DNA from: an uncultured Bartonella sp.
GTDB taxonomy: Bacteria > Pseudomonadota > Alphaproteobacteria > Rhizobiales > Rhizobiaceae
DNA: 64,000 bases
Direction: 5' to 3'
Assembly: GCF_945277285.1 (NCBI RefSeq)
Contig: NZ_CALYPR010000002.1
Location: 69,214 to 133,213, forward strand
Position numbers and translations under genes: made by a program. The notes beneath the pieces were generated by a model. That model was not told the origin of the DNA. It saw only the letters and a program-made list of their open reading frames with translations, and made no database searches. Position 1 is the first letter of the stretch; each line of letters opens with the position of its first letter. Below, one piece after another: positions 11,846 through 41,217 of the stretch.

Positions 11846-11930
11846 AGATTTATGCAAAGTGCGAGAAAGCCGGCTTTGAAAAACTGCAAAATGGCTATAT
11901 TGAAAGCCGTTTTTAAAGCCAACCGGTAAA

Positions 11931-11965: not shown

Positions 11966-12122
11966 TGGTTACCCCTTTTGAAGCTGATAGGGTCTTGCTT
12001 TTCAAAGCCGCGCTTTAACCTAGTAGCGCTGTTGAAACATTAAAAATTCGGTAATTTCCGGTACTGTTTCAATGTTTAAAAATTTGCCGGCAAGATGATC
12101 GCGCAAATGGCTTTATTTCAAA

Positions 12123-14378
12123 CTAGAAAGTGTAACGGCCGCTGATAAAATAGGTTCGTCCCGCTTCCGGAAAACCGCTTTCAAGCTCGTAATTCTCGTC
12201 GCTGATATTGCGGATGCCGGCGTTCAGGCTGGCATTTTTGTTAAAGGCATATTCGGCTGAAATATTGCCCAGAACAAAACCGTCGGTCTTTTTATATTCG
12301 CGTTGGAACGGCCCCTGATTATAGCGCGATGAATTGTATTCGATGCTCGGAACAATGGTCAGTTTTTCATAAGGTAACCATTTTGCATAGAAAAAAGCCT
12401 TGTGTTCGGGCCGGTTGGTCACCCGGATATCGTCTTCGGAAGGCGAGTCAATATTGCCATGCATAAAGGTGTAATTGCCGCCAAGAGTGAGGTTTTCGCG
12501 CGCCTGCCATTCGCTTGTGAGTTCCACCCCCTTATAATTGGCAGAACCGACATTGCGGTTTTGTGCCATTTCCTTGCCGTCATCATTATAAATTCCAAGA
12601 TAAACGCCATCAATCATGTCATCAATGTCGTTATAAAATAAGGCTGCGGAAAGCTTGAAATCTGCCGTCAGCCAGTCCGACCAGCCGATTTCATAATTGG
12701 TGGCACGTTCGGCTTTTAAATCGGGATTGGGAAGGGCAGCACCGAAACGGGCTGAAAACCGGTCTTTCAGTGTGGGAAAACGAGTGCGGTCGGAAACGCT
12801 TGCATGAACCTCTCCGGTTGCCGAAATGTGGTTGATTGCGGCAAACTGCCAATTTAGCGCATCATCATTGGTCAGGCGGTACTGTGCCTTGTCGCGGCTT
12901 CCTTGAACAATATAATCGGCACGTTTCAGATCGCGATAATCATAGCTTATGCCACCCACAAGATCGAGTGTTTTGGTCGCGTGGAAAGTATTTTCCAAAG
13001 CCGCCGACATGACATTTTCATGGTCTTCGGTATCCGGTTCGCGGGTAGCGTTTTTCATGTCGGGGCGCTTGAAGTTTTCTTCCTCGTGTTCGTCGCGGCG
13101 AAAATGCAATGCGGCTTTGAGTGTATTCATCGCAATCAGATCTGTCCCGCCTTCGATAGACCCGCCGAAACCCTTGTCATGATAGGTTGAATCGAATGAT
13201 TTCGGCTTGAATTGGGTGTTGAAATGATAGTCGTCATAACTTGAAATGGAATTATCGAAGAAAGCATAATAAAGTTTGCTGTTGATATAGGATTTGTCGC
13301 CAATTTCCGTATGGGTTGCCGTTGATACGGTTTCGACATCCCACTCCGGCCATTTCCAGTTTTTCTGGTAGTCGGATTGTTTGCCGCCTTTGGAAAGCCC
13401 GTCAACCGGCCGGTCAACTGCATAAAGCAGGTTCTTTTCCCCTTCCTGCTTGGTGTAGTTGATGGTGTACTCGTCTGTTTCATTGGGGGTAAAGCCCAGT
13501 TTGAAATTGCCGCGCCAGTCATTGACAGAGGAAAAATCCCGTCTGCCACCATCTTCAATTACGGCTCCGCCAACTGCCACCGGATCATATTTGCGCGACA
13601 TGAAAAAGCCGTCGCTATCACGATAGGCACCGCTCGCCTGCAAATAGAAACTTTCCTGCTTGCTGCCGACAAAAGCCGATGTCACATAATCGGCGACAGA
13701 GCCCCTGTTGCCAAAATTGACTGTCGGCCTTATTTCACCTTCCAGAGCTTTTGTGGGTTTGCGGGTCACAAGGTTGACTTCACCACCCATACCGCCCGGC
13801 CCGTTCAACACCGAAACATAGCCTTTTTGCACCTGTATCTCGGCCAGATCAGGCGTTAAAAACCGGCCGGCATCAAGGCCGTTGTCATAAGGCAGATAAA
13901 CCTGAATTCCATCAATCATCAACGGCGCCTGATCCATGTCGAAGCCGCGGATATAATATTTTTGTTCGTTGCGGGTTGTGCCGGTATTTTGAATTGTCAC
14001 ACCGGGAACAATTTTGAGCGCGTCATCAAGTGAATTGCGGTTGTAGGTGCGCACATCATCGGCTGTGACCGTGTCTTGGGAAATTGTCTGGCCGGCTGTC
14101 TGCCCCGATAGACCGCTGGTACTATAAACAGTAATCTTGCCCAGTTCATAAACCCCGGGAATTGCAATATTTTTGTTGTCTGCCGTCGGTTGCAATTTTG
14201 TGCCGGGAGCAGCCTTTTTGGCCGCCGGCTTGCTATTGTTATTGTCGTCACTTGCGGCATTGCCTTTGTCATCGCTTGTGACAAGAGGAGCCGTGCTATT
14301 TTCGGCAATAGCCGGTAAAACCATACCTGTGGTTGAGAGGATGCCTATGACAACGCATTGTTGATATTTTTTTAACAT
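12123..14378 (-). CDS. TonB-dependent outer-membrane receptor
   Basis: 751 aa. Signal peptide, plug region (ITVYSTSG.., LDDALKIVPGVTIQN, GIQVYLPYDNG) and a barrel ending ..FISGRYTF. Confidence 0.9.
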   Translation of the reverse strand: MLKKYQQCVVIGILSTTGMVLPAIAENSTAPLVTSDDKGNAASDDNNNSKPAAKKAAPGTKLQPTADNKNIAIPGVYELGKITVYSTSGLSGQTAGQTISQDTVTADDVRTYNRNSLDDALKIVPGVTIQNTGTTRNEQKYYIRGFDMDQAPLMIDGIQVYLPYDNGLDAGRFLTPDLAEIQVQKGYVSVLNGPGGMGGEVNLVTRKPTKALEGEIRPTVNFGNRGSVADYVTSAFVGSKQESFYLQASGAYRDSDGFFMSRKYDPVAVGGAVIEDGGRRDFSSVNDWRGNFKLGFTPNETDEYTINYTKQEGEKNLLYAVDRPVDGLSKGGKQSDYQKNWKWPEWDVETVSTATHTEIGDKSYINSKLYYAFFDNSISSYDDYHFNTQFKPKSFDSTYHDKGFGGSIEGGTDLIAMNTLKAALHFRRDEHEEENFKRPDMKNATREPDTEDHENVMSAALENTFHATKTLDLVGGISYDYRDLKRADYIVQGSRDKAQYRLTNDDALNWQFAAINHISATGEVHASVSDRTRFPTLKDRFSARFGAALPNPDLKAERATNYEIGWSDWLTADFKLSAALFYNDIDDMIDGVYLGIYNDDGKEMAQNRNVGSANYKGVELTSEWQARENLTLGGNYTFMHGNIDSPSEDDIRVTNRPEHKAFFYAKWLPYEKLTIVPSIEYNSSRYNQGPFQREYKKTDGFVLGNISAEYAFNKNASLNAGIRNISDENYELESGFPEAGRTYFISGRYTF

Positions 14379-14480
14379 GACAAATAATCCGGTAGAAAAG
14401 TGGGGGCGGGATCAGCGTCTTTTTTCCAAAAAGTTCCGTCTTGCTTTTCGTCTCTAATGGGGGCATTTACTAAAAAACGC

Positions 14481-14503
14481 GCTATATAGTTTATCTATAT
14501 AAC
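14481..14503. promoter_or_regulatory. conserved 23-bp motif GCTATATAGT-TTAT-CTATATAAC (copy 1)
   Basis: Lies in the divergent region between the TonB receptor (12123..14378) and the ABC binding protein (14604..). 19/23 identical to 18588-18610 upstream of the LLM oxidoreductase. Function is inferred only. Confidence 0.4.
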
Positions 14504-14603
14504 GAGTCATCGTGTTACGGTTTTTTATAACGGCTGTAAAGGATGGAAGAAAAAATTTTTAAGCAAACATTAATTTCTTATCAAGGAAAATCGAGGTTTT
14601 TCA

Positions 14604-15638
14604 ATGGTGATGTGGCGGTTTATCGTTCTTCTCATTTGTTTGTCGGTGTCGTTTACTGCCAAATCGCGTGAAATTGTCGATGCAACCGGCCAGTCCACTG
14701 ACGTGCCCGACCATATTGAACGCGTCATTGCCGCTGGCCCGCCAGCCGCAATCTTCCTTTATAGTCTCGCACCCGATTTAATGTTGGGCTGGCCCAGCCG
14801 TTTTAACGATAAAATAATCGGCTTTCTGGGCGAGCCGGCCAAATCCATGCCGGTTATCGGCTCTATTGGTGGCAAGACAGGCAGTGAAAGCAATATCGAA
14901 CGTCTCATGATGTTAAAGCCGGATCTGATTATCGACCTTGGCAATAGCGGCAGCACCAATGTTTCAATTGCTCAAAGGGCCAAAAACCGCACCAAAATTC
15001 CTTTTCTTCTTTATGAAGGGCGTTTGACGGCGCTACCACATGCCTATCGGGAAGTCGGCGCCCTGTTGGGCAAAAAGGCAGAAGGCGAAATGCGCGCCGA
15101 ATGGATAGAAAAGCGGCTTGATGAAATAAAACAGGTTGTCGAAAAGGTGCCTTATGACAAACGTCCGCGCATCTATTATGCCCGCGGTCAAAGCGGGCTT
15201 GAAAGCGGCGCCAGCCAATCCATCCATGCCGAAACAATAGAATTTTCCGGCGGCCGCAATGTTACCGGCGAAGCAATGGGAAATCAGGGCATTTTGCATT
15301 TGTCGATGGACGAAATCATGGCATTTGATCCGGATATGATTGTTGCTTCCGACCCCCGTTTTATCGAAACAATCAAAAGCGACGCGAATTGGCAGAATCT
15401 GCGTGCCGTCAAGAATGGCAAAGTTGTTGTTGCCCCCTCGCTTCCTTTCAGCACCATTGATATGCCTCCCTCGGTTAACCGTGTGATTGGTGCAGTGTGG
15501 CTTACCAACAAACTCTATCCGGAACTTTACCCCATTGATATGACCAGACAAATCGAGGAATTCTATTCTCTGTTCTATCATGTGAAGCTGGATGAAAAGG
15601 GTGTCTTGAACCTTTTTCAATTGCCGGAAAGCAAATGA
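14604..15638 (+). CDS. ABC transporter periplasmic binding protein (FecB/BtuF-type, iron-chelate/haem/cobalamin class)
   Basis: 344 aa with a signal peptide MVMWRFIVLLICLSVSFTA. Class III binding-protein context with a FecCD permease and ATPase immediately downstream. Confidence 0.8.
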   Translation: MVMWRFIVLLICLSVSFTAKSREIVDATGQSTDVPDHIERVIAAGPPAAIFLYSLAPDLMLGWPSRFNDKIIGFLGEPAKSMPVIGSIGGKTGSESNIERLMMLKPDLIIDLGNSGSTNVSIAQRAKNRTKIPFLLYEGRLTALPHAYREVGALLGKKAEGEMRAEWIEKRLDEIKQVVEKVPYDKRPRIYYARGQSGLESGASQSIHAETIEFSGGRNVTGEAMGNQGILHLSMDEIMAFDPDMIVASDPRFIETIKSDANWQNLRAVKNGKVVVAPSLPFSTIDMPPSVNRVIGAVWLTNKLYPELYPIDMTRQIEEFYSLFYHVKLDEKGVLNLFQLPESK

Positions 15639-16636
15639 TGCGAAGCACTCTCGTTCCGGCAAGCCTTATTGTGATCGGGCTTTTTGCTGTCATCATCGTC
15701 AATCTTGCTGTGGGAGCCTATCCGGTATCGTTTTATGATCTTTTCCGGTGGCTTGCATGGCGTTTTGCTTTGTCATCGCCTCCCGATAAAAACATCATCA
15801 TTATCGTCGAGAATATCAGGGCTCCGCGAATAGTGGCAGCCCTTCTTATCGGTGCCAGCCTTTCTTGTGCGGGGGCTGCCTATCAAAGTCTGTTCCGCAA
15901 TCCACTGGTGTCGCCGGATCTATTGGCTGTCTCGTCGGGGGCCGCCTTTGGCGCATCATTGTCCATTCTTTTTTCGTTAAGCTTTTTTATGCTGCAATTG
16001 AGCGCCTTTATCGGCGGTGTCTTTGCTGTTCTCATTGTGTTGACCATTGCCTATTTTGCCCGCCGTCGCGACAGAATATTGGCACTTGTTCTTGCCGGTA
16101 TTGTGGTCAGTGCCCTTTTGGGATCCGCGGTTTCTCTGGTCAAAATTCTGGCGGACCCTTATGAACAATTGCCGCTTTTAACCTTCTGGCTTTTAGGCAG
16201 CCTGTCGCGCATACAATCTTTTGAAATCTATCCGCTGGCACCGGTTTTTGTTGTTGCAACCGCTGCCATTATTGTTATGCGCTCGCGCATTGATGTGATG
16301 AGTGTGGGGGAAGAAGAAGCGCAAACCCTCGGCATTCATACCGGCCATATCCGCCTTGCCGTCATTGTGCTTGCCACGCTGTTAACTTCGGCGGCGGTTT
16401 CAATCTCCGGCATAATCGGCTGGGTGGGGCTGGTTGTTCCCCATATTGCACGCATGATGGTGGGGCCATCTTTCGGCCGAATGGGGATTTTGTCGGCATT
16501 GTTCGGCGGTCTGTTTCTGATCTTTGTCGATACATTGGCAAGAACACTTGCAGCAGTCGAAATTCCGTTGGGCATTCTCACAGCACTAATCGGCGCACCG
16601 ATTTTTGTTTTTTTGCTGGTGAAAGGAAAACAATGA
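15635..16636 (+). CDS. FecCD-family ABC permease
   Basis: 333 aa, about 9-10 TM segments, family-typical GAAYQSLFRNPLVSPDLL.. region. 4-nt overlap with the upstream gene. Confidence 0.9.
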   Translation: MMRSTLVPASLIVIGLFAVIIVNLAVGAYPVSFYDLFRWLAWRFALSSPPDKNIIIIVENIRAPRIVAALLIGASLSCAGAAYQSLFRNPLVSPDLLAVSSGAAFGASLSILFSLSFFMLQLSAFIGGVFAVLIVLTIAYFARRRDRILALVLAGIVVSALLGSAVSLVKILADPYEQLPLLTFWLLGSLSRIQSFEIYPLAPVFVVATAAIIVMRSRIDVMSVGEEEAQTLGIHTGHIRLAVIVLATLLTSAAVSISGIIGWVGLVVPHIARMMVGPSFGRMGILSALFGGLFLIFVDTLARTLAAVEIPLGILTALIGAPIFVFLLVKGKQ

Positions 16637-17406
16637 CCGACAATGTGCTTTTATCGGTAAAAGATCTTGCAACCGCCCATCACAAACAAAGGGTAAGCGA
16701 CGGTATCACTTTTACATTAAAAAAGGCACAAAGTCTGTGCATTCTTGGCCCCAATGGCGAAGGCAAAACCACACTGATGAAAACCCTGCTCGGGCTTTTG
16801 CCCGCCTTGTCCGGTTCGATTTTTTATCACGGCAAAGCACTTTCGACATTGCCATTCAAGGCACGCGCACGGCTTTTTTCCTATGTGCCGCAAAATAGCG
16901 CAGTCAATTTTTCCTTCACTGTTCTGCAAATGGTGTTGATGGCCAGAACTTCGCAATTGTCGCTATTTGAGGTTTTCTCGCAACAAATGCACGAGAAGGC
17001 CTTTGCCCTGTTGCAACGGCTGGAAATTGCCGATCTTGCCAACAAAAATTATACGAAGATAAGCGGCGGGCAACGGCAAATGGTGCTCATTGCCCGTGCA
17101 CTTTTCCAGCAATCGGAACTCATTGTTCTTGACGAGCCGACAGCAAGTCTCGACTTTGCCAATCAGGATAAATTGTTGCAGCTTCTCGCCAGACTGAAAA
17201 ATGAAGGCCACAGTATTATTTTTTCCACCCATCAGCCTGATCAGGCTTTCTATTTTTCCGATTACGCGCTTATGCTGAAAGACCGTGGCATGATGGCGAT
17301 TGGCGAAACCGCCAATGTGCTCACCGAAGAAAATCTGAAACATCTCTATCAGGCCGATGTTGCTATTGCCGATCTGGGGGGTAAAAAAATAACCTATATT
17401 CGCTAG
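16633..17406 (+). CDS. ABC transporter ATP-binding protein (iron-chelate type)
   Basis: Walker A GPNGEGKTTL, signature ISGGQRQMVLIARAL, Walker B LIVLDEPTASLD. 4-nt overlap with the permease gene. Confidence 0.9.
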   Translation: MTDNVLLSVKDLATAHHKQRVSDGITFTLKKAQSLCILGPNGEGKTTLMKTLLGLLPALSGSIFYHGKALSTLPFKARARLFSYVPQNSAVNFSFTVLQMVLMARTSQLSLFEVFSQQMHEKAFALLQRLEIADLANKNYTKISGGQRQMVLIARALFQQSELIVLDEPTASLDFANQDKLLQLLARLKNEGHSIIFSTHQPDQAFYFSDYALMLKDRGMMAIGETANVLTEENLKHLYQADVAIADLGGKKITYIR

Positions 17407-17420
17407 AGTTCAATTTTCTA

Positions 17421-18563
17421 TTAGCCAAGTTGCGGCGCAATCTGTTTGACGACTTTTTCCAAAAGCCGCAAATTGAAATCCATGCCGATTTCGTTGGCAA
17501 CCGGCACCATAATGGTATCGGCAAGCATTGCCGCTTCGTCATTTTTCATCAACTCGACAATCTCGTCGCTTGAACCCTTATAGCCTCCTTCAAAGACATT
17601 GCGTGCTTTTTTGTGGTTTGGCCACAAGGTGTGCAGCTTTTCTGTCACTTGGTCAAACTGCTGTTTTTCTTTCTCGCTATCCAAGGGCACCAGTTCACGA
17701 ATAACGGCAATTCTGGGCTTTCTTGTGTGTCCGGCTTTTTGCCATGCTGCAAGATAATGCTTGATATGTTCTTTCTGTCCTGCAAAAGGCATCGGCTTTT
17801 TCTTTGGGTTTGCCTCTTTGGCATATCGGGCAGCTTCCCGGTTTTCCTGTTCTTCTTTTTTCATGTCGTCGGCCAGCACAGGCATTGCATGATCGGGAAA
17901 GGCAGCATTTCTGGCATTGCCACCACTATGGCCTGCACTTTGCAGGTTCAAACCGTGTTTTGCCGCCCATTCGGCACTGGAAAGCGAGCCGGAAGCCCAC
18001 CAGACCCGCTCCAACAAAGTCGGCGAGTGGGGCTCAATGCGCGCCATGCGGTGGTTTACCGGCGCATCGGGAAACGGCACTTCCAGTTCTATTTTCTTTT
18101 CACCTTTCAAAATATCCAAAAAGGCTTCTGCCCGCTCCATGGCCATATCGGTCGGGCTTTTTCCGGCCTTAGGTCGGTAGCCAAAATGTTTCCACCCGTC
18201 AACGGCCGACCACGGTGCACCGCGCCCGAGCCCCAGTTGCAACCGGCCATTCATAATAAGATCTGTTGCACCGGCATTTTCAGCCAGATGTTGCGGGTTT
18301 TCGTAGCGCAGATCAATCACTCCGCTGCCAATTTCGATTTTTTCAGTTTTTGCGCCAATGGCGCTGAGAAGCGGTAAAGGCGAAGACAATGAATCGGAAA
18401 AATGATGGACACGGAAAAAAGCACCATCAACGCCAAGCGCTTCAGCTTGAACCGCCATTTCAATTGTCTGGAGAAAAGCATCTTTTGCGGTTTTTGTGCA
18501 GGAACTCTCGTTATCGTTCCAGCGAACAAAGGAAATAAAAGCAATTTTTTTTTTCATTTTCAC
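17421..18563 (-). CDS. LLM-class (luciferase-like) flavin-dependent oxidoreductase
   Basis: 380 aa. N-terminal pattern IAFISFVRW..QTIEMAVQAEALGVDGAFFRVHHF is typical of luciferase-like monooxygenases. Convergent with the ABC operon. Confidence 0.75.
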   Translation of the reverse strand: MKMKKKIAFISFVRWNDNESSCTKTAKDAFLQTIEMAVQAEALGVDGAFFRVHHFSDSLSSPLPLLSAIGAKTEKIEIGSGVIDLRYENPQHLAENAGATDLIMNGRLQLGLGRGAPWSAVDGWKHFGYRPKAGKSPTDMAMERAEAFLDILKGEKKIELEVPFPDAPVNHRMARIEPHSPTLLERVWWASGSLSSAEWAAKHGLNLQSAGHSGGNARNAAFPDHAMPVLADDMKKEEQENREAARYAKEANPKKKPMPFAGQKEHIKHYLAAWQKAGHTRKPRIAVIRELVPLDSEKEKQQFDQVTEKLHTLWPNHKKARNVFEGGYKGSSDEIVELMKNDEAAMLADTIMVPVANEIGMDFNLRLLEKVVKQIAPQLG

Positions 18564-18587
18564 TGCAATTTCTGGTTGGTATATTGT

Positions 18588-18610
18588 CGCTATATAGTCA
18601 AGCTATATAA
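18588..18610. promoter_or_regulatory. conserved 23-bp motif GCTATATAGT-CAAG-CTATATAAC (copy 2)
   Basis: Lies 25-47 nt upstream of the LLM oxidoreductase start. Second copy of the motif at 14481-14503. Confidence 0.4.
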
Positions 18611-19909
18611 CAGTCAAAATCATATAACACAGAAATTTTTTTGTTCCAGATGAAAGCCGGCTTTTTGCATTTGGATCGTCGCAAAGCTTTTTCCAATTGC
18701 CGGGCCTTTTCAAAAACTTGAAGGGTGCGCTTGAACGTGCGGCTGTTTTTGCTGTTGCGCCTGTTCAGGGCCGTTTGCTGCCCGCCTGATTACCGGTAGC
18801 GTTGCGTTTATATTCTGAAGTGAGTTGTTGTGAAAATTTTTTTAACGGAACACAGAATGTGCCAAAACAAGACAAAACTTTCTGACGGGAAAGATTATTG
18901 GCCCGTAAATAATCAACTTGTAACGATTCCCGTTTTTGCAAAAGTTGCCAACAGGTCTCGTTAAAAGGGCGAGATTTGCTGTTTTTGCAGGCCAGTTTTT
19001 CATTGTGCGCCCATCTGGAAACTTTCTTTAAGTCCAGCATGAAAGGCTGCCGTCCAGACACTTTTGAAGCGGAAAGATATAAAAAGAATACGCCCCTTGC
19101 GGATTACTGGGTGCATTCCATAGAAACCGTTTTGCAGTTCTATGACCTGTCATCCACGCCATAAAGGCCTTGTAAAACGATACAGGAAATTAAACAGAAA
19201 GAGAACCTTATTTCAAAAAAGCAGAAATTTAACAAAACAGTACTCTCGAAGTTTGATTGTGATTGGGTAAGCCCCCAATGCGTCTCAATATTTAGCCGAC
19301 GAAATAAATGGCATAATTCGAAAGGGCAAAAGCAGTATTTTTATTGAAGTCTAAAAACCGTTTTTTAAGTCGTTGCTGCTTTACGGTAGTGTTTAAAAAG
19401 GTTAGAGGCAAAGAACCGGATATGCGTGTTTTTGCACCATTTTAAAAGTTTAAAAGCAACCCTTCTTCAACGCTTCTTCACCTTAGCTTTTCGCGGTTAT
19501 GGGGTTTGCTTTTCGTTTATCTTGGTTTTAAAAAATACGCTTGCCAATATCGCCCACCTATATACATTGCCAAAATGTGTTATGGACTGGGTGGTTGGCG
19601 CGCTTTGCGCTATCTACGGGGCAGAGCTTGCCGCTACACGCTTTATCACAGCCTCGAAAAGTTCGATCTGATCGACAGCACTTATGTTGTGCCGGAAAAA
19701 TCCTAGGCCTTGCCGGTTTCTTATGTGGTGTACTCGGCGTGTCATTCATTGACCTTGCCATTCACACGGCTAAAAAACATTTGAACAAGACCGATTGATT
19801 TTTCTTATTGAGAGCATTTCTACAACTTTTTATTGGGGGAAGAGTTTGGAAATTATCTTTTTAAAGAGAAACTAACTTATTGTTTATTTGCGATATTTTT
19901 TAAAAAATA

Positions 19910-28226: not shown

Positions 28227-28351
28227 AACCCATAATTGAAGCAAATTTTAAAAAAATGACAAAAATCAGCCAAATTTTGTGTTTTTTTTCCATTTTTTTT
28301 GAAAAAAATACCCACTTAACGCTTAAAAAACAAAGAGTTAAGTGGGTATCG
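28227..28351. repeat. AT-rich CRISPR-flank segment, copy A (homologous to 30083-30203 and 40674-40744)
   Basis: Alignable by eye. A reads ..CCATAATTGAAGCAAATTTTAAAAAAATGACAAAAATCAGCC..TTTTTTTTGAAAAAAATACC.. and B reads ..CCAATTGAATTTAAAAAAAATGGAAAAAACCGGCC..TTTTTTTAAAAAAAATACC.. Confidence 0.7.
28301..28349 (-). terminator. intrinsic terminator at the left (minus-strand downstream) end of CRISPR array A
   Basis: 13-bp stem ATACCCACTTAAC / GTTAAGTGGGTAT (28308-28320 / 28337-28349) with a 16-nt loop. On the minus strand it is followed by TTTTTT(C). It ends 2 nt from the first repeat. Confidence 0.65.
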
Positions 28352-28652
28352 GTTGTAGCATATTAGAAAATGCGGTCAAGCCGCAACATGTCGCTAATCA
28401 AAACAACACTGTTGTGTGTTGTAGCATATTAGAAAATGCGGTCAAGCCACAACATGAACGCTGGTGTGGTGATAGCGACATGAGTTGTAGCATATTAGAA
28501 AATGCGGTCAAGCCGCAACAATGCACCGGTACTTTGCCATCTAGTTTGCTGTTGTAGCATATTAGAAAATGCGGTCAAGCCGCAACTATCGCGGTCGCCA
28601 AAAGCACCATACCGTTGGTGTAGCATATTAAAAAATGCAATGCATTTGATCA
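28352..28652 (-). CRISPR. CRISPR array A: 4 intact 36-bp repeats plus 1 degenerate repeat, 4 spacers (30/30/31/30 bp)
   Basis: Repeats at 28352, 28418 (GCCACAAC variant), 28484 and 28551 read GTTGTAGCATATTAGAAAATGCGGTCAAGCCGCAAC. The repeat at 28617-28652 keeps only the first 22 nt. All spacers are unique. The strand given is the inferred transcription direction (promoter and terminator logic), not proven. Confidence 0.9.
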
Positions 28653-28681
28653 GCTCATTTTTCCGGCAAAGTCTTTGGTTG

Positions 28682-28788
28682 TCGCAATCCTTATCCGAAA
28701 ACCGTGCATTTTTAGTTATCGCAATTCTTATCCGAAAACCGTACATTTTTTCAACTGGTTCTTATCCAAAAACCGCTTCGCACTTTTT
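28682..28788. repeat. three direct repeats (about 32 bp, 37-bp period) with core CTTATCC(G/A)AAAACCG
   Basis: TCGCAATCCTTATCCGAAAACCGTGCATTTTT (28682-28713), TCGCAATTCTTATCCGAAAACCGTACATTTTT (28719-28750) and a weaker third unit ..GGTTCTTATCCAAAAACCGCTTCGCACTTTTT (about 28756-28788). Confidence 0.7.
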
Positions 28789-28845
28789 GGGAAACAAGTT
28801 GCACTTTTCGGGAGCCGCTTGGAAACCTTTTTCAAAAAAAGCGCG

Positions 28846-29880
28846 TTAATTGCCCCAAATGCGTTCAAGAACGGCAATCCAGTTTTTGGAAGTGATTTTT
28901 TCAATCTCGTCATGGCTAAAACCGGCTTTTTCCATAGCGTCAACAAGCTTCGGCAATTGCGTGCAATCCGATAGGTCATTGGGAATGGTTGTGCCGTCAA
29001 AGTCAGAGCCAAGGCCAACATGTTCCACGCCGACAATGTCAACAATATAGCGCATATGGTTGATAATGGTTTTAAGTGGCGTGTCGCGGTTGCGCTCGCC
29101 ATCTGCACGCAAAAATTTCACCCCGAAATTGATGCCGACAAGCCCCTTGCTTTTGCCAATGGCGCGCAATTGCTCATCGGTCAAATTGCGGCTTTGATGG
29201 CTCAAGTGATAGGCGTTCGAATGGGAAGCAACAAGCGGCGCATCGCTCAATTTGGCAATGTCCCAGAAGCCTTTTTCATTCATATGGGAAAGGTCAACCA
29301 TAATGCCGAGTTTGTTGCATTCGCGCACCAGCTTTTTGCCGGCCTCCGTCAAGCCCGGGCCAATATCGCCGGTTGAAGGATATTTGAACGGCACACCAAA
29401 ACCGAAAATATTGGGCCGGCTCCACACCGGGCCAAGGCTGCGCAAACCATTTTCATAAAACATGGCCAGTTCTTCGAGGTTTTCGCCAATCGCTTCGGCC
29501 CCTTCAATGTGAAAAACAGCGGCAAATTGATGCGCTTTGATGGCCTCTTTAATGTCTTTGGCAGTTTTGCAAATTTTGAAGCGTTGCGGGGCAAGCTTTT
29601 CAATATCATGAAGAAGCTTGGCCATTTCCTTGCTCGGGCCTAGCGCATCCTTTTGTTTAAGCTCGGGATAAACCCCGTTTGCATCTGGCGTTAAATCGAC
29701 CGATGGCGGGTAAACCGCACAAAGCCCACCAACAAGCCCGCCTTTTTCAGCCTTTGGCAGGTCAAGTTCTGCACCGTCAAAACCATTGATAAAGGCGTTC
29801 GGGTCTAGATGTTTTTCATCGCGTATTTTGGAAAGAATATCATTGTGCCCGTCAAAACATTGAATGCGCGTTTGTGTCAT
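28846..29880 (-). CDS. membrane dipeptidase (peptidase family M19)
   Basis: 344 aa. The N-terminal FDGHNDIL metal motif and the overall pattern (..VDLSHMNEKGFWD.., ..ASHSNAY.., ..GLGSDFDG..) are typical of renal-dipeptidase-type enzymes. Confidence 0.85.
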   Translation of the reverse strand: MTQTRIQCFDGHNDILSKIRDEKHLDPNAFINGFDGAELDLPKAEKGGLVGGLCAVYPPSVDLTPDANGVYPELKQKDALGPSKEMAKLLHDIEKLAPQRFKICKTAKDIKEAIKAHQFAAVFHIEGAEAIGENLEELAMFYENGLRSLGPVWSRPNIFGFGVPFKYPSTGDIGPGLTEAGKKLVRECNKLGIMVDLSHMNEKGFWDIAKLSDAPLVASHSNAYHLSHQSRNLTDEQLRAIGKSKGLVGINFGVKFLRADGERNRDTPLKTIINHMRYIVDIVGVEHVGLGSDFDGTTIPNDLSDCTQLPKLVDAMEKAGFSHDEIEKITSKNWIAVLERIWGN

Positions 29881-30082
29881 GAAAATTGCCTTAATCCCAG
29901 TTCATTAAAATGTTTTTCTGTTATAGGCCATTAAACGCCCTTTAAACACCGGCGTTAATAATTTTTTTTAAAAATGGCACGCGGGGAGGCTGTGCTTTTG
30001 TCAGATGCGGAAATCGGCGGGGCAAATTTGGTGAGGAAAAAGTTCTTTGAGAAAACTCAAAAACTACGCTGTTATCGCGTCT

Positions 30083-30203
30083 AAAAACCAATTGAATTTA
30101 AAAAAAATGGAAAAAACCGGCCTGACTTTTTCACTTTTTGACCAATTTTTTTAAAAAAAATACCTGTTTATCTCTTATAAATCAAAGAGATAAACAGGTA
30201 TCA
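30083..30203. repeat. AT-rich CRISPR-flank segment, copy B
   Basis: Homologous to 28227-28351 (see there). Confidence 0.7.
30152..30201 (-). terminator. intrinsic terminator at the left end of CRISPR array B
   Basis: 16-bp stem ATACCTGTTTATCTCT / AGAGATAAACAGGTAT (30160-30175 / 30186-30201) with a 10-nt loop. On the minus strand it is followed by 7-8 T. It ends 2 nt from the first repeat. Confidence 0.7.
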
Positions 30204-30306
30204 GGTGTAGCATATTAGAAAATGCGGTCAAGCCGCAACATGTAAGACTGCCTTTCAGTGTCGATTTAGGGGTGTAGCATACTAGAAAATGCGGTCAAGC
30301 CGCAAC
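30204..30306 (-). CRISPR. CRISPR mini-array B: 2 repeats, 1 spacer (31 bp)
   Basis: GGTGTAGCATATTAGAAAATGCGGTCAAGCCGCAAC (30204-30239) and GGTGTAGCATACTAGAAAATGCGGTCAAGCCGCAAC (30271-30306). Same family as array A, with a G at position 2. Confidence 0.75.
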
Positions 30307-30499: not shown

Positions 30500-31792
30500 T
30501 TGAAAAAAGAAAAAACAGAAGCGGATTTTGTTAGAACAAAACGTGAAAATATGGGACTGACGCAGAGTGCTTTCGCTGCGCTTCTCTCTATGGGGGCTTC
30601 AGGTGAGCGGACTATAAGGGGTTGGGAAAGCGGACAGCATACTCCGTCAGAAGAGTACATGAAACGCATGCAAAATCTGGTTGAGAATATACCGTTTAAA
30701 CCGGGAAAGAATTTATCGTCCTTTACATTTATAGATCTTTTTGCAGGTATAGGTGGAATCCGTCTTCCTTTTCAGGAACTGGGCGGAAAATGTGTATTTA
30801 CATCCGAATGGGATAAATTTGCCCAAAAAACCTATGCAGCGAATTTTGCTGAATTACCATATGGTGACATTACTGCCATAGCGGCATCTGGGATCCCATG
30901 CCACGATATACTTCTCGCGGGGTTTCCTTGCCAGTCTTTTTCGATGGCTGGTCTCAGAAAAGGTTTCCTTGATACCCGTGGAACCATGTTTTTCCAAATT
31001 CAGAAAATATTGGCTTATCATAGGCCCAAGGCTTTTCTTCTGGAGAATGTAAAACAGCTGAAAGGGCATGACAAAGGCCGGACGTTGAAAACCATTCTCG
31101 CAATATTGAGAGGGCACCATGACGTTTCTATACCGGATGATGTGCCTCTGTCTGACGAGTTACGGGAAAGTCTGAAAACAAAACTCGATTATTCGGTCGG
31201 TTATCGTGTTTTGAGTGCAACCGATTTCGGGGTGCCACAAAAACGGGAACGTATTTACATTGTCGGTTTTGATCGAAGTATCTGTAACGAGGACGATATA
31301 TCGCAGATGTTCGACCAATTGGAAAAGAACGATAAGAAATCGCTGGGGCAGATACTCGAAGACAATTCATCGGTTCCTGATAAATACACGATTTCCGATA
31401 GGCTTCTGGCAGGGCATGAACGACGGAAAAAGGAACAGAAAGAAAAAGGAAACGGCTTCGGGTACAGTCTTTTCAGTCATAATAGTCTTTATTGCAATAC
31501 CTTGAGTGCGCGCTATTATAAGGATGGATCAGAAATTCTCATCGACCAGAGTGACATCGGAAAGAATCCCAGAAAACTGACGCCTCGTGAATGTGCCCGC
31601 ATACAGGGGTTTCCCGAAAAATTCCGGCTGGATGCTGTTTCCGATGTTCAACTCTATAAACAGTTCGGCAATTCTGTTTCGGTTCCGGTTATACGCTCTA
31701 TAGCGAAAGAAATGGTCAAAATTCTGCTGGAAAGCGGAAAAGACGCCGGAAACCTTGATTTGAGGAAGGTTTACGGGGAAAAATTTGGCTGA
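30500..31792 (+). CDS. DNA (cytosine-5)-methyltransferase with N-terminal XRE-type HTH
   Basis: 430 aa. HTH ..RENMGLTQSAFAALLSMG..TIRGWESG... m5C MTase motifs I FIDLFAGIGGIRLPF, IV GFPCQSFS, VI LLENVKQL, VIII QKRERIYIVG, IX RKLTPRECARIQGFP and X GNSVSVPV. TTG start with AAGGAAAG 8 nt upstream. Confidence 0.9.
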   Translation: MKKEKTEADFVRTKRENMGLTQSAFAALLSMGASGERTIRGWESGQHTPSEEYMKRMQNLVENIPFKPGKNLSSFTFIDLFAGIGGIRLPFQELGGKCVFTSEWDKFAQKTYAANFAELPYGDITAIAASGIPCHDILLAGFPCQSFSMAGLRKGFLDTRGTMFFQIQKILAYHRPKAFLLENVKQLKGHDKGRTLKTILAILRGHHDVSIPDDVPLSDELRESLKTKLDYSVGYRVLSATDFGVPQKRERIYIVGFDRSICNEDDISQMFDQLEKNDKKSLGQILEDNSSVPDKYTISDRLLAGHERRKKEQKEKGNGFGYSLFSHNSLYCNTLSARYYKDGSEILIDQSDIGKNPRKLTPRECARIQGFPEKFRLDAVSDVQLYKQFGNSVSVPVIRSIAKEMVKILLESGKDAGNLDLRKVYGEKFG

Positions 31793-32240
31793 TATCGTAT
31801 CGCCTGAAAAACGCAGCCGCATGATGGCCGGTATACAAGGGAAAAATACCGGACCGGAAATGATAGTTCGCAGAACCCTGTTTTCGGCAGGTTACCGGTA
31901 TCGGTTGTACAGAAAAGATTTGCCCGGTACGCCGGATATAGTGCTTCCCAGGTATCGTTGTGTGATATTTGTGAATGGTTGCTTCTGGCATGGCCACGAA
32001 AATTGCAGGTTGTTCCGCCTGCCCAAAAGCAATACGGAATTCTGGCGCGCAAAGATTGAAGGCAATATTGCGAGAGACCGGAAAAAGTATGATGCGCTTG
32101 CTGAAAGAGGCTGGCGTATTATTATTGTCTGGGAATGTGCGGTAAAAGGGGCTCAACGGTTGTCGCACGCGGATTTCCAATATCAGCTATTTCATGCTAT
32201 TTCCGAAAAGAAAAAATGCCTTGTAATTAAAGGTGATTGA
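31785..32240 (+). CDS. vsr: very-short-patch repair endonuclease
   Basis: 151 aa with KRSRMMAGIQGKNTGPE, GTPDIVLPRYRCVIFVNGCFWHGH and FWRAKIEGNIARD, the canonical Vsr pattern. TTG start overlaps the MTase stop by 8 nt, as in dcm-vsr pairs. Confidence 0.9.
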   Translation: MADIVSPEKRSRMMAGIQGKNTGPEMIVRRTLFSAGYRYRLYRKDLPGTPDIVLPRYRCVIFVNGCFWHGHENCRLFRLPKSNTEFWRAKIEGNIARDRKKYDALAERGWRIIIVWECAVKGAQRLSHADFQYQLFHAISEKKKCLVIKGD

Positions 32241-32269
32241 CTTGAATATAGAGCGAAAAACTTGGACTC

Positions 32270-33847
32270 GTGATCATGGTACCCGATATTATAAATAGTT
32301 TCAAAGTTACCCAAGAAAAAATAAGTAAAATCGATAAAAAGCAGGTCGTAGTATTGAGCCCGCAACAATGGCAAAAAATTATTGCTGAATATCAGAAAAA
32401 ATTTCCTCAGGAGACTGTTTTTGAGGTGGGTGGGCATACGCTGGTGAACATAAATAGAAAAGGCCAGACAAAATATGTAAGTTGTCAGGAATTTCCGAAA
32501 TTATTTTTTCTTGTTGATCTATTTAAAGATCTTTTGTCTTTTGAAAGTGTTTTAAATAAACTTTCCGAGGCGATGGGGCTTAAAAATCCTCAGTCTGATG
32601 ATGAAAATAATGTATTCAAAGTTCTACCTTCAGAGACCGCAGAGAAAGAACTTGGGGATCGGTATAATTCGCTGATTGACGCCATTGACAAGTCGTTTCC
32701 TGATGCAGATGATCAGCTTAACATAAAAAATTTTTTGTTCAGCTCTAATGACGGTAAAAAGTTGAATCGCGGGGACTGGATGGAATCTGTTCTGTATAAA
32801 GCGGGAGGGCTGGTAGCGGCTTCATCAGCAGGTCGGGCCGGAATTCTGGAAGTGTTGGAAAAGACGGGAATAGATCCCAATTCACTCCATTTTGTATCAA
32901 ACCAGCAAGAACAGAACACGTTGATCATTGAAAATAATTCTACGCGAAAAACAGGTGGTATAAACCGCATCTATTATGGAGCTCCGGGAACCGGAAAATC
33001 CTACACAGTTGAGAAAAGCTCCCGTCCGGAAACAAGAACTACTACAGTATTCCACTCCGACTTCCAGAACAGCGATTTTGTCGGTGCTTTGAAACCGGTG
33101 ATGTCGGATGGCTCCGTTACCTACAAATTTTCCCCGGGCCCGTTTGCCATAGCGTTAAAAGAAGCATGGCTTGATCCTGAAAATATGCATTACCTCGTGA
33201 TCGAAGAACTGAATCGTGCGCCGGCCGCATCGGTGTTCGGAGAACTGTTCCAGCTGCTGGACCGGGACAACAACGGAAACAGCCAGTACGAGATAGACTT
33301 TCCGTCGGAAGAATTTGCTTCATGGTGGAGGGATGAGACAGGTGAGGAAGGTAAAATGAGGCTTCCCTCGAATCTTTCTATACTCGCGACGATGAACAGC
33401 GCTGACCAGGGAGTATATCCCCTTGATACGGCTTTTCGCCGTCGATGGGAACACGAATATATTCCTCTGGACTATAAAAAAGCTCCGGAAGGACAAATTG
33501 GTTTACGTCTGAAGGATGATGAAACTCCCCGCACGGTAGAATGGAGTGTTTTTCTGAAGAGACTCAATCAGTATTTTGTAGAAAAAATCAATGACTTACC
33601 GGAAGACCGGTTGATCGGACCCTATTTTTTATCAGGATATGATCTGGATAATGCTAAAAATTCGATTCCCGAAAAGCTGCTGATCTATATATGGGATGAT
33701 CTTTTACGCCATACCGGAAGACAGGAAATATTCGTCAGTTCTATCAAAACGTATGGTGATCTGGTCCGGAGAAACGAGAATGGAAAAGTGATTTTTTCAG
33801 AAGCTTTCCTTGCACGGTTTGATGATGGGAATGGCGTTGTTTCATGA
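32270..33847 (+). CDS. McrB-family AAA+ GTPase (LlaJI R1-like restriction subunit) with an unassigned 230-aa N-terminal domain
   Basis: Walker A GAPGTGKS, Walker B-like LVIEELNRA, McrB signature ATMNSADQ and arginine-finger region DTAFRRRW. The N-terminal domain has no motif I recognise. Start is GTG 32270 or ATG 32276. Confidence 0.8.
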   Translation: MIMVPDIINSFKVTQEKISKIDKKQVVVLSPQQWQKIIAEYQKKFPQETVFEVGGHTLVNINRKGQTKYVSCQEFPKLFFLVDLFKDLLSFESVLNKLSEAMGLKNPQSDDENNVFKVLPSETAEKELGDRYNSLIDAIDKSFPDADDQLNIKNFLFSSNDGKKLNRGDWMESVLYKAGGLVAASSAGRAGILEVLEKTGIDPNSLHFVSNQQEQNTLIIENNSTRKTGGINRIYYGAPGTGKSYTVEKSSRPETRTTTVFHSDFQNSDFVGALKPVMSDGSVTYKFSPGPFAIALKEAWLDPENMHYLVIEELNRAPAASVFGELFQLLDRDNNGNSQYEIDFPSEEFASWWRDETGEEGKMRLPSNLSILATMNSADQGVYPLDTAFRRRWEHEYIPLDYKKAPEGQIGLRLKDDETPRTVEWSVFLKRLNQYFVEKINDLPEDRLIGPYFLSGYDLDNAKNSIPEKLLIYIWDDLLRHTGRQEIFVSSIKTYGDLVRRNENGKVIFSEAFLARFDDGNGVVS

Positions 33848-35106
33848 CGACGTTATTTCTGAATGATGGATATCCGCTCTCGAAGCTGGAGGATGAACAT
33901 CCGGGGATATATCGAATACTCGAAAGCAATTATCCCGGATCTACTCTCAATCGTGACAGGTTGAGGTTTTGTGGAATTGTTTGTGAAGCCGGTTCGGATC
34001 CCGTTGTATTTCTTCCCTATGGCATTGTCATTTCCCGATTCGCTGCACCGGATTATAACGCCGGCCGGCTTCTTATGCGGTCGGTTGCCCGTTACGGAAA
34101 AGACAATCCGTCGCGGGCAGGCCATTCTCTTTCCGATGTGGATTATAAAGGGACGATGTTCATCGCTGTTGTAAATGAACTCGCCAATGATTTTATACGC
34201 AACGGTCTTTATTCCCGACGATTGAGAAAAAGGCAGGTGCAGACGGGTAAGCCCGACTGGCCACGGACTATAAAAAGGCAGACGCCTTTCTTTTCTGACA
34301 AAGGGGTGCCCATATATCCCGTCATTGAAACCAATGGATTTCAGGAAGCGAATATAAATATTCTTGCCAGCATCCAGGCCGATACAATAGTTGATATAGC
34401 ATCCAGACATGGCTGGTGGACTGGATTGGGCGCGTCGCAAACCAGGTTTCTTAAAAACATTCCGAAGCTGGTCAGAGACAGGAAACTTTACCCGGCAGCT
34501 ATCCGCGATTTTATGAACTTTCTTTATGATGACAATTCGCTAAGACTGGCAAGGCTATTGCGAACGTACTGGAGCAACTACTCAGCAACCGGATCCGGAA
34601 GTTTTGTGTGTGGTATCTCGGATTTCTCGACCCTCTGGGAGCAGATGCTCAAAAATCTGGTGGATGACCGTTCGGGCGAGTGGAACAGCAAACTTCCTTC
34701 GCCGGTCTATAAAATACATAATCTGGATGACAAAGCTCCCAAGGATAGGGGAAGAATGGATATAGTGATAGAGGCAACCGATAACATCATTGTCGCCGAC
34801 GCAAAATATTACAGGGCATTATCGGCTGATAGCGCTCCGGGCATTTCCGATCTCCTGAAACAATCCTATTATGCAAAGTCGGTATCTGATCTTGCTCCTC
34901 AAAAACCGATCCGCAGCTGTTTTGTTTTTCCATCGGAGAAAGGTAGTGGTCCGATAGAATACGGCTCGTTCGCCAGTACTTTGCATGACCAAAAGGTAGC
35001 ATGGCTGGAAGATACACATTGTTTATACGTCAATACGCGGGAAGTCATGCAAAGCTACGTTTCGCGATCGAAATTGGACTGGTTTCTACAATTATACAAA
35101 AAATAG
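33844..35106 (+). CDS. McrC-like / LlaJI R2-like PD-(D/E)xK nuclease subunit
   Basis: 420 aa. ATGA overlap with the McrB-like gene. C-terminal nuclease-like motif GRMDIVIE..(10 aa)..VADAKYY (D..D/ExK). The pairing with a McrB-type GTPase is the McrBC/LlaJI architecture. Confidence 0.65.
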   Translation: MTTLFLNDGYPLSKLEDEHPGIYRILESNYPGSTLNRDRLRFCGIVCEAGSDPVVFLPYGIVISRFAAPDYNAGRLLMRSVARYGKDNPSRAGHSLSDVDYKGTMFIAVVNELANDFIRNGLYSRRLRKRQVQTGKPDWPRTIKRQTPFFSDKGVPIYPVIETNGFQEANINILASIQADTIVDIASRHGWWTGLGASQTRFLKNIPKLVRDRKLYPAAIRDFMNFLYDDNSLRLARLLRTYWSNYSATGSGSFVCGISDFSTLWEQMLKNLVDDRSGEWNSKLPSPVYKIHNLDDKAPKDRGRMDIVIEATDNIIVADAKYYRALSADSAPGISDLLKQSYYAKSVSDLAPQKPIRSCFVFPSEKGSGPIEYGSFASTLHDQKVAWLEDTHCLYVNTREVMQSYVSRSKLDWFLQLYKK

Positions 35107-39617: not shown

Positions 39618-40499
39618 TTACTTGCATATTGCTTTAACTTCGGCCCAAAAGGCAATATTCTCGCCGACAGATTGTAGCCCCGGAAACAGAAACTGTTTGT
39701 TCACGCCGTAATTAAAAAGTTTTCTTAAGATTTCTGTTTTTATTTTAGCAGGAATGATGATTTTTTTAAGCGTTAAGTCGCGATTGAGTGTGGAAGTGAT
39801 ATCGCCCCGTTGATCAATCGATTTATATTTTCCCTCTTCGGTTGCTTCCCATTTTTGAAGTGTAAAAACCGATTTTTGCATAAAAATTCGTTGGTCGACA
39901 ATTGGTGGCAATATGCCGCCAATTTTAACGCTATCTAAATCCTTAAAAATTTGATTCCTTTTAGTATCATTAATATCAAAATAGAGTTTTGACCGTAGCG
40001 TTCGCATCTGATTTATACAAAAGACAGCGGCATCTGTTGCGGTCTGTTTGTCGGTTTTTGTTGAACCCTTCCGGTTTTTCCGGTCTTCCACCCAGGCATT
40101 TTGTACCGCAAAAAACAGCGCCACTAGTGGGTCGCGGCTCCAGTCGAGAAGCCGTGTCGGCACACCATAATGCTGGGCAATAATCCTGTCAGCAATAAAA
40201 CCGCGTTTGGCATTTTGGAGATAAGGCATGCCTTCTGCAAAAAAGCGTTCCACCATTTCTTCTTCACAACGCGTATATCGGCTGTCATTATCTTCCTCAG
40301 GTTCTTTTTTGATAAACGGAGGATTGCGATAAAGCTTCGGGGTGAGCAACCATTTTGCACTGGATTGTCCCCTGAAAAAATGAGCTTTCCCTTCGGTTAT
40401 AGTTTCAATAAGATTGAAATAGGCGTTTAATGTTGGTTTTTTTAAAGTAACTCTTTTTATTTTCATTTTAAAAAATCCGGTCAATATATTCAGATTCAT
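39618..40499 (-). CDS. FRG-domain protein
   Basis: 293 aa (or 282 aa from MKIKRV..). Contains the FRG signature ..KAHFFRGQSSAKWLLTPKLYR.. and ..IAQHYGVPTRLLDWSRDPLVALFFA... The C-terminal 130 aa are unassigned. Confidence 0.75.
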   Translation of the reverse strand: MNLNILTGFFKMKIKRVTLKKPTLNAYFNLIETITEGKAHFFRGQSSAKWLLTPKLYRNPPFIKKEPEEDNDSRYTRCEEEMVERFFAEGMPYLQNAKRGFIADRIIAQHYGVPTRLLDWSRDPLVALFFAVQNAWVEDRKNRKGSTKTDKQTATDAAVFCINQMRTLRSKLYFDINDTKRNQIFKDLDSVKIGGILPPIVDQRIFMQKSVFTLQKWEATEEGKYKSIDQRGDITSTLNRDLTLKKIIIPAKIKTEILRKLFNYGVNKQFLFPGLQSVGENIAFWAEVKAICK

Positions 40500-40673: not shown

Positions 40674-40744
40674 ATAGCCGGATCTTATTTTGACTATTTA
40701 AAAAAAAGCTCACTTAACGCTTTTTAAAAAACTGGGCTAGCGGG
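40674..40744. repeat. AT-rich CRISPR-flank segment, copy C (decayed)
   Basis: ..TTTAAAAAAAAGCTCACTTAACGCTTTTTAAAAAACTGGGCT.. aligns with the A flank ..GAAAAAAATACCCACTTAACGCTTAAAAAACAAAGAGTTAAGTGGGTAT.., but the 3' arm of the hairpin is deleted. Confidence 0.55.
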
Positions 40745-40975
40745 CAGCAGGGCCATAAGGAAATGCGGACAAGCCACAACCTTGGATGTTCTTCTTCGTC
40801 GGGCGAAGATGGTGGCGCATAAAAATTGCGGTCAAGCCGCAACTAAATGTTTGGGTAAAGCAATGTCGCCAGTGGTGTAGCAGATTAGAAAATGCGGTCA
40901 AGCCGCAACATGGCGTTCGTTATGGAGCAAAGCTTCATAGTTGCAGCATATTAGAAAATGCGCTCACACCGCAAC
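40745..40975 (-). CRISPR. CRISPR array C: 4 repeats (3 mutated), 3 spacers of 30 bp
   Basis: C1 40745-40780 (3' half ..GGAAATGCGGACAAGCCACAAC conserved). C2 40811-40843 (GGTGGCGCATAAAAATTGCGGTCAAGCCGCAAC, 3-bp shorter). C3 40874-40909 (GGTGTAGCAGATTAGAAAATGCGGTCAAGCCGCAAC). C4 40940-40975 (GTTGCAGCATATTAGAAAATGCGCTCACACCGCAAC). Spacing is exactly 30 bp. Confidence 0.8.
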
Positions 40976-41217
40976 ACATCCATGGTTTAGGTTGGCCGTT
41001 GATTTTACCTTTAAATTTTGCCATATCACCAATAGACACCGAGCCAAACGGAGCGCCACCCTTGCGGTGTTGGGGAATTTCCGACCCAACGGTGTCATTG
41101 GAATTTTTCCACGGTTTTGGGCTTTATCAAAATTTTCCTGCATTGTTCGCCGTTGTTGCGCGTTAAAAAATGCGCGCTAACGGCACATTTTATCGGCGTG
41201 TTTTAGATGTTGAAAAT

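Follow-up and report, generated by a model that had tools for sequence, protein, structure and literature searches.

Three small arrays built from one repeat

We analyzed a 64-kb stretch of DNA from an uncultured Bartonella sp. (contig NZ_CALYPR010000002.1; hereafter, the window), in which a 36-nucleotide (nt) repeat, GTTGTAGCATATTAGAAAATGCGGTCAAGCCGCAAC on the plus strand, builds three small CRISPR arrays, here called A, B, and C. Copies of this sequence with zero to two mismatches start at positions 28352, 28418, 28484, and 28551 (array A), 30204 and 30271 (array B), and 40874 (array C), and more degenerate copies start at 28617, 40745, 40808, and 40940. Spacers in the window are 30 to 31 nt long, and the repeat family as a whole has 177 unique spacers, 130 of them 30 nt. 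Regular 36-nt direct repeats with unique spacers of ~30 nt are the pattern of a type II-C array. The surrounding genes comprise an M19 dipeptidase, MFS and MatE transporters, a methylase/AAA_5/LlaJI restriction cluster, and an FRG-domain gene. The arrays are laid out as follows, the minus strand being the predicted sense of the CRISPR RNA (crRNA).

28352 to 28586, minus strand (crRNA sense): array A, with four intact 36-nt repeats (28352 to 28387, 28418 to 28453, 28484 to 28519, and 28551 to 28586) and three spacers of 30 to 31 nt
28587 to 28652, minus strand: oldest spacer of array A (28587 to 28616) and a degenerate "extra" repeat (28617 to 28652)
30204 to 30306, minus strand: array B, with two repeats (30204 to 30239 and 30271 to 30306), one 31-nt spacer, and TACACC as the -10 box
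40745 to 40975, minus strand: array C, with two degenerate repeats (40745 to 40780 and 40808 to 40843), a third repeat (40874 to 40909), and a fourth with mutated -35 and -10 boxes (40940 to 40975)

The state of preservation varies among the repeats. Each of the four array A repeats has at most one mismatch, and two of the four in array C are badly decayed. In the degenerate repeat of array A, the recognizable part spans 28617 to 28638; it keeps TGC-TACACC and the promoter spacer described below, and its -35 box and tracrRNA-pairing end are gone (tracrRNA, trans-activating crRNA).

A promoter-like motif in every intact repeat

Read on the minus strand, the repeat is GTTGCGGC-TTGACC-GCATTTTCTAATATGC-TACAAC, with 16 nt between the two boxes and TGC directly before the -10 box. 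A sequence-only reading of this DNA had proposed that such an extended -10 promoter lies within each repeat. The layout of the leader-adjacent repeat of array A recurs in each intact repeat, as that reading held; it had also pointed to TACACC as the -10 box of array B, which is what array B has, and one array C repeat has it too.

28352 to 28379, minus strand: putative repeat-embedded promoter in the leader-adjacent repeat of array A (-35 TTGACC, 28379 to 28374; TG, 28360 to 28359; -10 TACAAC, 28357 to 28352)

We scanned both strands of the window for a composite motif, defined as a -35 box matching at least five of six positions, a spacer of 16 to 18 nt, TGn, and a -10 box starting with TA and matching at least four of six positions. 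The scan returned the four array A repeats, one unrelated site, and nothing more. Because the motif is almost confined to the array A repeats, it is no chance feature of a random 36-mer. A generic promoter scan missed the repeat promoters because it demands a T at the last position of the -10 box. The missing T had been raised earlier as a caveat, and it is indeed missing, but its weight is lessened by comparison with the alphaproteobacterial consensus of Caulobacter RpoD, TTGaCgS / GCtANAWC (PMC8144410). The window repeat, TTGACCG-N13-GCTACAAC, matches the -10 part of that consensus (GCtANAWC) at eight of eight positions, although the consensus is that of Caulobacter RpoD and may not be the host's.

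The end of the repeat is also constrained by something besides pairing with tracrRNA. Its last 6 to 9 nt lie outside the match to the anti-repeat, yet TGnTA is kept there in four lineages, whose repeats end in TGCTACAAC, TGTTACAAC, TGCTATAAT (Tokpelaia, a perfect extended -10), and TGCTAAGCT (Pararhizobium). Among terminal repeats (n = 34), mismatches cluster at crRNA-sense positions 1 to 6 and the promoter part is mostly intact. This pattern fits an oldest repeat that is kept merely as a promoter, and plain decay of the distal end would look alike. At the level of sequence, an (extended) -10 element thus stands in the 3' part of the repeat in crRNA sense, as in known type II-C arrays, and we infer that the repeat promoters probably fire.

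Each repeat also contains, in crRNA sense, the hairpin UGCGG-CUUGA-CCGCA followed by UUUUCU, which was flagged as terminator-like and weak (-6.9 kcal/mol; z = -1.5). The -35 box falls in its loop and 3' arm. The hairpin could attenuate read-through between units, or it may reflect a mere tracrRNA/Cas9 constraint.

The parent system in related genomes

In a repeat-core scan that covered one genome per species, all matches fell in honeybee-gut Bartonella, namely, B. apis, B. apihabitans, B. choladocola, and metagenome-assembled genomes. In a scan of JGI metagenomes, the window-type repeat had no match, and a looser core returned two 2-repeat orphans only. The array of B. apis PEB0122 lies directly after cas9-cas1-cas2 in the same orientation as in the window. 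Its first repeat is set off from the cas2 stop codon by the same hairpin flank (see below), and it ends in decayed repeats at its far end. The full locus in a metagenome-assembled genome encodes Cas9 (NCBIfam TIGR01865, 619 bits), a type II Cas1 (cas1_NMENI), and cas2, and has no csn2 or cas4. The same three genes, likewise without csn2 or cas4, stand beside the repeat family in relatives L008, L012, and L069 to L074. This gene content assigns the system to type II-C.

Two other identities were considered and set aside. A type VI-B (Cas13b) array came into question for a 36-nt repeat of the form GTTG...CAAC with 30-nt spacers and was ruled out because the repeat adjoins cas9-cas1-cas2. A non-CRISPR interspersed repeat was ruled out by the same adjacency and by spacers that match phages.

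In two Logan contigs that carry cas loci with the window-type repeat (L069, positions 10662 to 11100, and L071), cas2 and the leader lie ~430 nt apart. The gap holds a decayed repeat, GGTGCGTATTAAAAATGCAATTGA, which resembles the window repeat at 28617 and suggests that an older array may have collapsed there, with a second leader-flanked array behind it.

Orientation of the arrays

Upstream of cas9 in the relatives, on the antisense strand, lies a tracrRNA-like gene. It has a conserved TTGACA/G -35 box with a -10 box ~17 nt on, followed by the anti-repeat, the segment GUUAAC-AAGC, and an 11-bp terminator hairpin with U6 behind it. We saw this architecture in five lineages (L012, three Logan assemblies, and Candidatus Tokpelaia); the relatives thus have the anti-repeat tracrRNA, nexus-like segment, and terminator of a type II-C system. 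The anti-repeat agrees in sense with the plus-strand repeat of the window, so the crRNA must come from the minus strand. Consistent with this, the predicted repeat/anti-repeat duplex reaches -46.1 kcal/mol with a minus-strand crRNA versus -37.4 kcal/mol in the opposite combination. In two Logan contigs, the arrays of the cas9 loci are built from the window-type repeat (GTTGTAGCATATTAG...), and the anti-repeat reads GCAUAUUAG in window-type lineages versus ACAGAUUAG in B. apis, so that both variant positions of the repeat covary in the tracrRNA.

Spacer targets point in the same direction. Seven distinct phage protospacers, carried by a siphophage-like contig and related IMG/VR contigs, match spacers of the repeat family. 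In minus-strand sense, the 3' flank has purines at positions 2 and 3 in every case (14 of 14) and an A/T content of 84% at positions 5 to 12, versus 53% in the background. The opposite flank (3' in plus-strand sense, outside the PAM-distal end) has no signal except a C at position 1 in five of seven protospacers (L016 to L019), which may be chance. There is no crisp protospacer-adjacent motif (PAM), and the PAM-like signal was read post hoc from seven protospacers; its direction is that expected of a minus-strand crRNA. Searching the INPHARED phages with the whole array as the query gave no true spacer match, and ~50 phage loci related to the targeted siphophage yielded no further protospacers.

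The siphophage-like contig itself (L016; JAAOBB010000021.1) carries a mini-array of the same repeat family at 7117 to 7218, with two repeats, one spacer, and no hairpin leader. Its genes include tape measure, tail tube, tail terminator, and Ant; its protospacers lie at 1571 to 3911, and at least six Bartonella spacers match it. The mini-array may be phage-borne and directed against competitors.

Right-to-left (minus-strand) transcription of the arrays, as the sequence-only reading had proposed, is supported by the tracrRNA orientation in the relatives, the duplex energy, the covariation of the anti-repeat, and the PAM-side signal. In this orientation, the leader would lie downstream of transcription and the mutated oldest repeat upstream, at the cas-distal end. 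The degenerate repeat of array A, which had been placed at the transcription-upstream end, agrees in its position with the published II-C scheme (PMC12080349), which combines repeat-embedded promoters, a downstream leader, and a mutated first repeat (PMC3656092, PMC12080349, PMC12477760). In such systems, new spacers enter at the repeat that is transcribed last, and mutations gather in the first, oldest repeat (PMC12080349).

A covarying hairpin in the leader

To the left of each array, and thus downstream in the predicted direction of transcription, we identified a leader-like flank with the following features.

28243 to 28351, minus strand: leader A, a flank of ~110 nt with 77% identity to leader B, matching the cas2 3' end, T/A tract, and hairpin flank of the relatives' cas-adjacent arrays
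28307 to 28350, minus strand: hairpin of leader/putative terminator A (14 + 3 pairs; -22.7 kcal/mol; z = -7.1), followed by U6-7
30095 to 30203, minus strand: leader B, a paralogue of leader A
30159 to 30202, minus strand: hairpin of leader/putative terminator B (18 pairs; -25.1 kcal/mol; z = -8.5), followed by U8
40690 to 40744, minus strand: decayed leader C, with an A-run and a remnant of the 5' arm, GCTCACTTAACGC (40708 to 40720), and no 3' arm

Hairpins followed by a T-run had been predicted 2 nt beyond the leftmost repeats of arrays A and B, and on the minus strand each hairpin does start 2 nt past the last repeat and runs into a tract of six to eight U's. These tracts are the plus-strand A-runs at 28303 to 28309 (A) and 30153 to 30160 (B). 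The loss of the 3' arm in array C, where only the remnant of the 5' arm is left, was likewise correctly recognized. The two complete hairpins are of equal length and align without gaps, with four aligned compensatory pairs (C-G to U-A, A-U to G-C, C-G to U-A, and A-U to U-A), and the inner stem is better paired in B than in A. The earlier claim of compensatory covariation in the inner stems therefore stands, and the claim that these stems differ completely does not.

We compared the flanks across related genomes, a check that the sequence-only reading had called for. All of the ~25 complete array blocks in the clade loci examined have the hairpin flank, in a fixed order: a fragment of the last cas2 codons, T7-8, A7-8, the hairpin, 2 to 3 nt, and the first repeat. 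At every complete block the hairpin is accompanied by U7-8. Across 13 distinct hairpin versions, pairing holds in 92.7% of cells and both partners change in six pairs, a level of pairing and covariation that 0 of 500 shuffles reached, and the pairing was lost when partner columns were slid. L069 (ATCCCC/GGGGAT) and Tokpelaia (C-G to G-C) add further compensatory changes. This flank is the II-C leader, the end at which the array acquires spacers, copied along with a piece of the cas2 3' end.

In all Bartonella copies and in Tokpelaia, the stem is directly followed by a U-rich run on the crRNA strand and has no such run on the other strand. This asymmetry is the chief argument that the hairpin is a terminator of array transcripts. 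A stable stem-loop with a U-tract, showing compensatory change in relatives, has the features of an intrinsic terminator, and we infer that the hairpin probably terminates transcription.

A model of array transcription

We interpret the three arrays as short, dispersed type II-C arrays of a honeybee-gut Bartonella, whose minus-strand crRNAs would be made from promoters in the repeats, with the leader hairpin acting as a terminator, and we put the probability of this reading at roughly 75%. In this model, the 3' two-thirds of the repeat would form a promoter for the housekeeping sigma factor (-35 TTGACC, 16 nt, TGn, -10 TACAAC), and transcription would start ~6 to 7 nt into the next spacer. The transcript would then enter the following repeat, whose first ~30 nt would pair with tracrRNA for loading into Cas9. 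The oldest repeat, at the right and transcription-upstream end, would serve as a promoter only, its tracrRNA-pairing end having decayed. The left flank of each array would be the II-C leader or acquisition end, derived from the region just past cas2, and its hairpin of 13 to 18 bp with U6-8 would be an intrinsic terminator for array-derived transcripts. At the canonical locus, such a terminator would keep antisense transcription off cas2; in the window, it would shield the same-strand genes downstream, namely, the M19 dipeptidase gene below array B and a small open reading frame (ORF) and the MFS gene below array A. The orphan arrays would be served by Cas9 and tracrRNA encoded elsewhere in the genome.

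Several observations weigh against this model. The -10 box lacks the T at -7 needed by Escherichia coli sigma-70, and in arrays B and C it is mutated to TACACC. The PAM-like signal comes from seven protospacers and was picked after the data had been viewed, and 22-mers of the window spacers A2, A3, and B1 have no exact match in IMG/VR. For the hairpin, the base of the stem is A/U-rich, which is atypical of intrinsic terminators, and the promoter of the leader-adjacent repeat would itself start transcription within the 5' arm. The equivalent hairpin in Pararhizobium, at the same place, is shorter and has no U-tract. Finally, pairing on the plus strand is nearly equal to that on the minus strand (203 versus 217 of 234 cells), so selection could act on the structure as DNA or for a different role. 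This G-U wobble asymmetry is too weak to decide the strand, and in relative L071, one wobble favors the opposite strand.

The points on the hairpin bear on an alternative in which the flank is primarily a leader signal for Cas1-Cas2 integration, whether as a DNA structure, a protein-binding site, or a sequence at the ATCG/ATCA junction that anchors the leader, with the terminator look secondary or an A/T-rich by-product. The hairpin is located exactly at the end where II-C systems acquire spacers (PMC12080349, PMC12477760) and is copied with every array block together with the cas2 3' fragment; its most conserved parts are the repeat-adjacent junction and the outer clamp. The nearly strand-neutral pairing and the Pararhizobium hairpin without a U-tract also speak for such a signal. 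It would not account for a U-rich run that is confined to the 3' side of the stem on the crRNA strand in all Bartonella copies and Tokpelaia, nor for a stability and shape typical of an intrinsic terminator, and the two roles are not mutually exclusive. We consider a primarily integrative role a serious, if less likely, possibility.

A second alternative is that the arrays may be relics, left nonfunctional when the cas locus was lost or relocated, so that their motifs are inherited and no longer used. Arrays A to C are orphans: the 64-kb window contains no ORF for cas9, cas1, or cas2 and no tracrRNA-like anti-repeat, and its only ORF of >1,000 amino acids encodes an AcrB pump. In relatives (L074 and L008), cas9-cas1-cas2 and the arrays sit between a phosphotransferase system (PTS) gene and tRNA-rplU. 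The syntenic interval of the window, 11827 to 19904, has been taken over by other genes and contains no repeat or CRISPR remnant, from which we conclude that the cas locus was lost or replaced there. The arrays are very short (four, two, and four repeats), and the state of array C and its leader, the TACACC variants in B and C, and the lack of a phage match for spacers A2, A3, and B1 all point to decay. Continued use is indicated by the intact array A repeats (zero or one mismatch each) and by the four compensatory pairs between hairpins B and A, which argue that pairing was selected after duplication. Moreover, close relatives with the same repeat variant carry an intact cas9-cas1-cas2 locus with a matching tracrRNA, and the cas locus could sit elsewhere in this genome. 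We consider it less likely than not that the arrays are mere relics.

Plus-strand transcription from left to right, starting at an A/T-rich leader promoter and leaving the degenerate repeat at the leader-distal end, would give the commonest CRISPR layout (leader left, degenerate repeat right) and would suit a plus-strand repeat that starts with GTTGTAGC, as the Neisseria repeat does. It is nonetheless highly improbable: the tracrRNA promoter, terminator, and anti-repeat sense demand a minus-strand crRNA, a promoter scan found no plus-strand promoter in the leaders, a plus-strand transcript would have the U-tract on the wrong side of the hairpin, the PAM-like signal falls where a minus-strand crRNA would put it, and II-C leaders are known downstream (PMC12080349).

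An extension of our model would give the leader hairpin two purposes, as an integration signal for Cas1-Cas2 and as a terminator of outgoing transcription, and would let it seed new arrays on bee-gut Bartonella chromosomes, together with the cas2 3' fragment and one repeat. Each repeat would then be a self-contained unit, a promoter with the weak UGCGG-CUUGA-CCGCA-UUUUCU attenuator, giving crRNAs of about mature size without RNase III. As a whole, we regard this scheme as quite unlikely.

Comparison with known type II systems

In their main features, the arrays are a well-supported and essentially ordinary example of the known II-C design with repeat-embedded promoters. The closest likeness is to Neisseria meningitidis, whose II-C system shares the 36-nt repeats, the 30-nt spacers, and a parent locus of cas9-cas1-cas2 only (PMC12477760, PMC12080349). 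Also shared are an array that runs opposite to cas transcription, an extended -10 (TGnTA...) at the 3' end of the repeat, a leader that adjoins the last transcribed repeat, and an oldest repeat upstream. In N. meningitidis, crRNAs start at the sixth nucleotide of each spacer, from repeat-embedded promoters, and the Neisseria leader contains elements essential for acquisition (PMC12477760); starts a few nucleotides into the spacers are predicted for Bartonella as well. Unlike that of Neisseria, the Bartonella repeat also has a near-consensus -35 box, TTGACC, and its -10 box ends in C, which suits an alphaproteobacterial consensus and not one of the E. coli type. The Bartonella leader further differs in its strong hairpin and U-tract, and genomes of the clade differ in having many leader-flanked arrays, the three in the window being without nearby cas genes.

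The minimal II-C system of Campylobacter jejuni (Dugar et al. 2013, PMC3656092) is alike in that the array is apparently read backwards from a promoter in every repeat. It differs in repeat sequence and in the sigma consensus of the host, and C. jejuni has a single small array beside its cas genes.

The putative terminator has partial parallels. Rho-independent terminators that flank II-C arrays (Feussner et al. 2025, PMC12080349) likewise use a hairpin and U-tract to insulate the array from neighboring transcription, but those terminators lie upstream, at the old end, where they block incoming transcription, and they are not statistically enriched (PMC12080349). The Bartonella hairpin, unlike those, lies downstream inside the leader, where it would block outgoing transcription, and it is conserved, with covariation, at every array of the clade. 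A type II-A leader-repeat hairpin (Liao et al. 2022, as cited in PMC12080349) offers another case of structured RNA in the leader beside the terminal repeat; according to that citation, the II-A leader pairs with the repeat and so suppresses extraneous crRNA. The Bartonella hairpin differs in being self-contained and 3' of the transcribed array, with no involvement of the repeat.

In the II-C literature cited here, we found no description of a conserved, covarying terminator hairpin inside the leader, and such a hairpin, if it acts as proposed, would be the modestly new element of these arrays. A notable genomic habit accompanies it, in that many leader-flanked mini-arrays occur and some are stranded without cas genes. 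The analysis also extends the II-C design with repeat-embedded promoters from Neisseria and Campylobacter to the Rhizobiales, with the -35 and -10 boxes both in the repeat and with an alphaproteobacterial flavor. It fixes the orientation of the arrays for analyses of spacer targets and PAMs in honeybee-gut Bartonella and supplies a candidate tracrRNA for this Cas9 clade, and the numerous leader-flanked mini-arrays are natural material on array birth and loss.

Neighboring genes and other elements

The orphan arrays sit in a small defense-gene neighborhood. A C5 cytosine methylase fused to a helix-turn-helix domain, an AAA_5 (McrB-like) protein, and a LlaJI-family endonuclease are encoded at 30500 to 35106, adjoining array B, and the FRG-domain gene at 39618 to 40499 adjoins array C. 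At 28674 to 28747, with the decayed oldest repeat of array A on one side and the dipeptidase stop codon on the other, a 37-nt unit occurs twice in tandem (89% identity) and a third time in part; all have CTTATCCRAAAACCG in common.

A conserved element of ~60 nt lies at 41036 to 41096 on the minus strand, with a 7-bp outer stem (GACACCG/CGGTGTC) enclosing three small hairpins in a cloverleaf-like arrangement. The same element occurs in related loci at L001:6800, L001:7339, L004:1332, L009:628, L010:2400, L011:286, and L011:1093, on the crRNA strand just upstream of array blocks, and folds at -20 to -28 kcal/mol. The element matches no Rfam family at the gathering threshold and has no tRNA call; in the window as a whole, Rfam at that threshold returned two tRNAs only.

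Identical spacers are duplicated inside several arrays of the family, in adjacent units or as a two-spacer block (L008:4065-4158; L011:3864-4093 and 1481-1576; L073:10560-10691), which indicates repeat-mediated duplication inside arrays.

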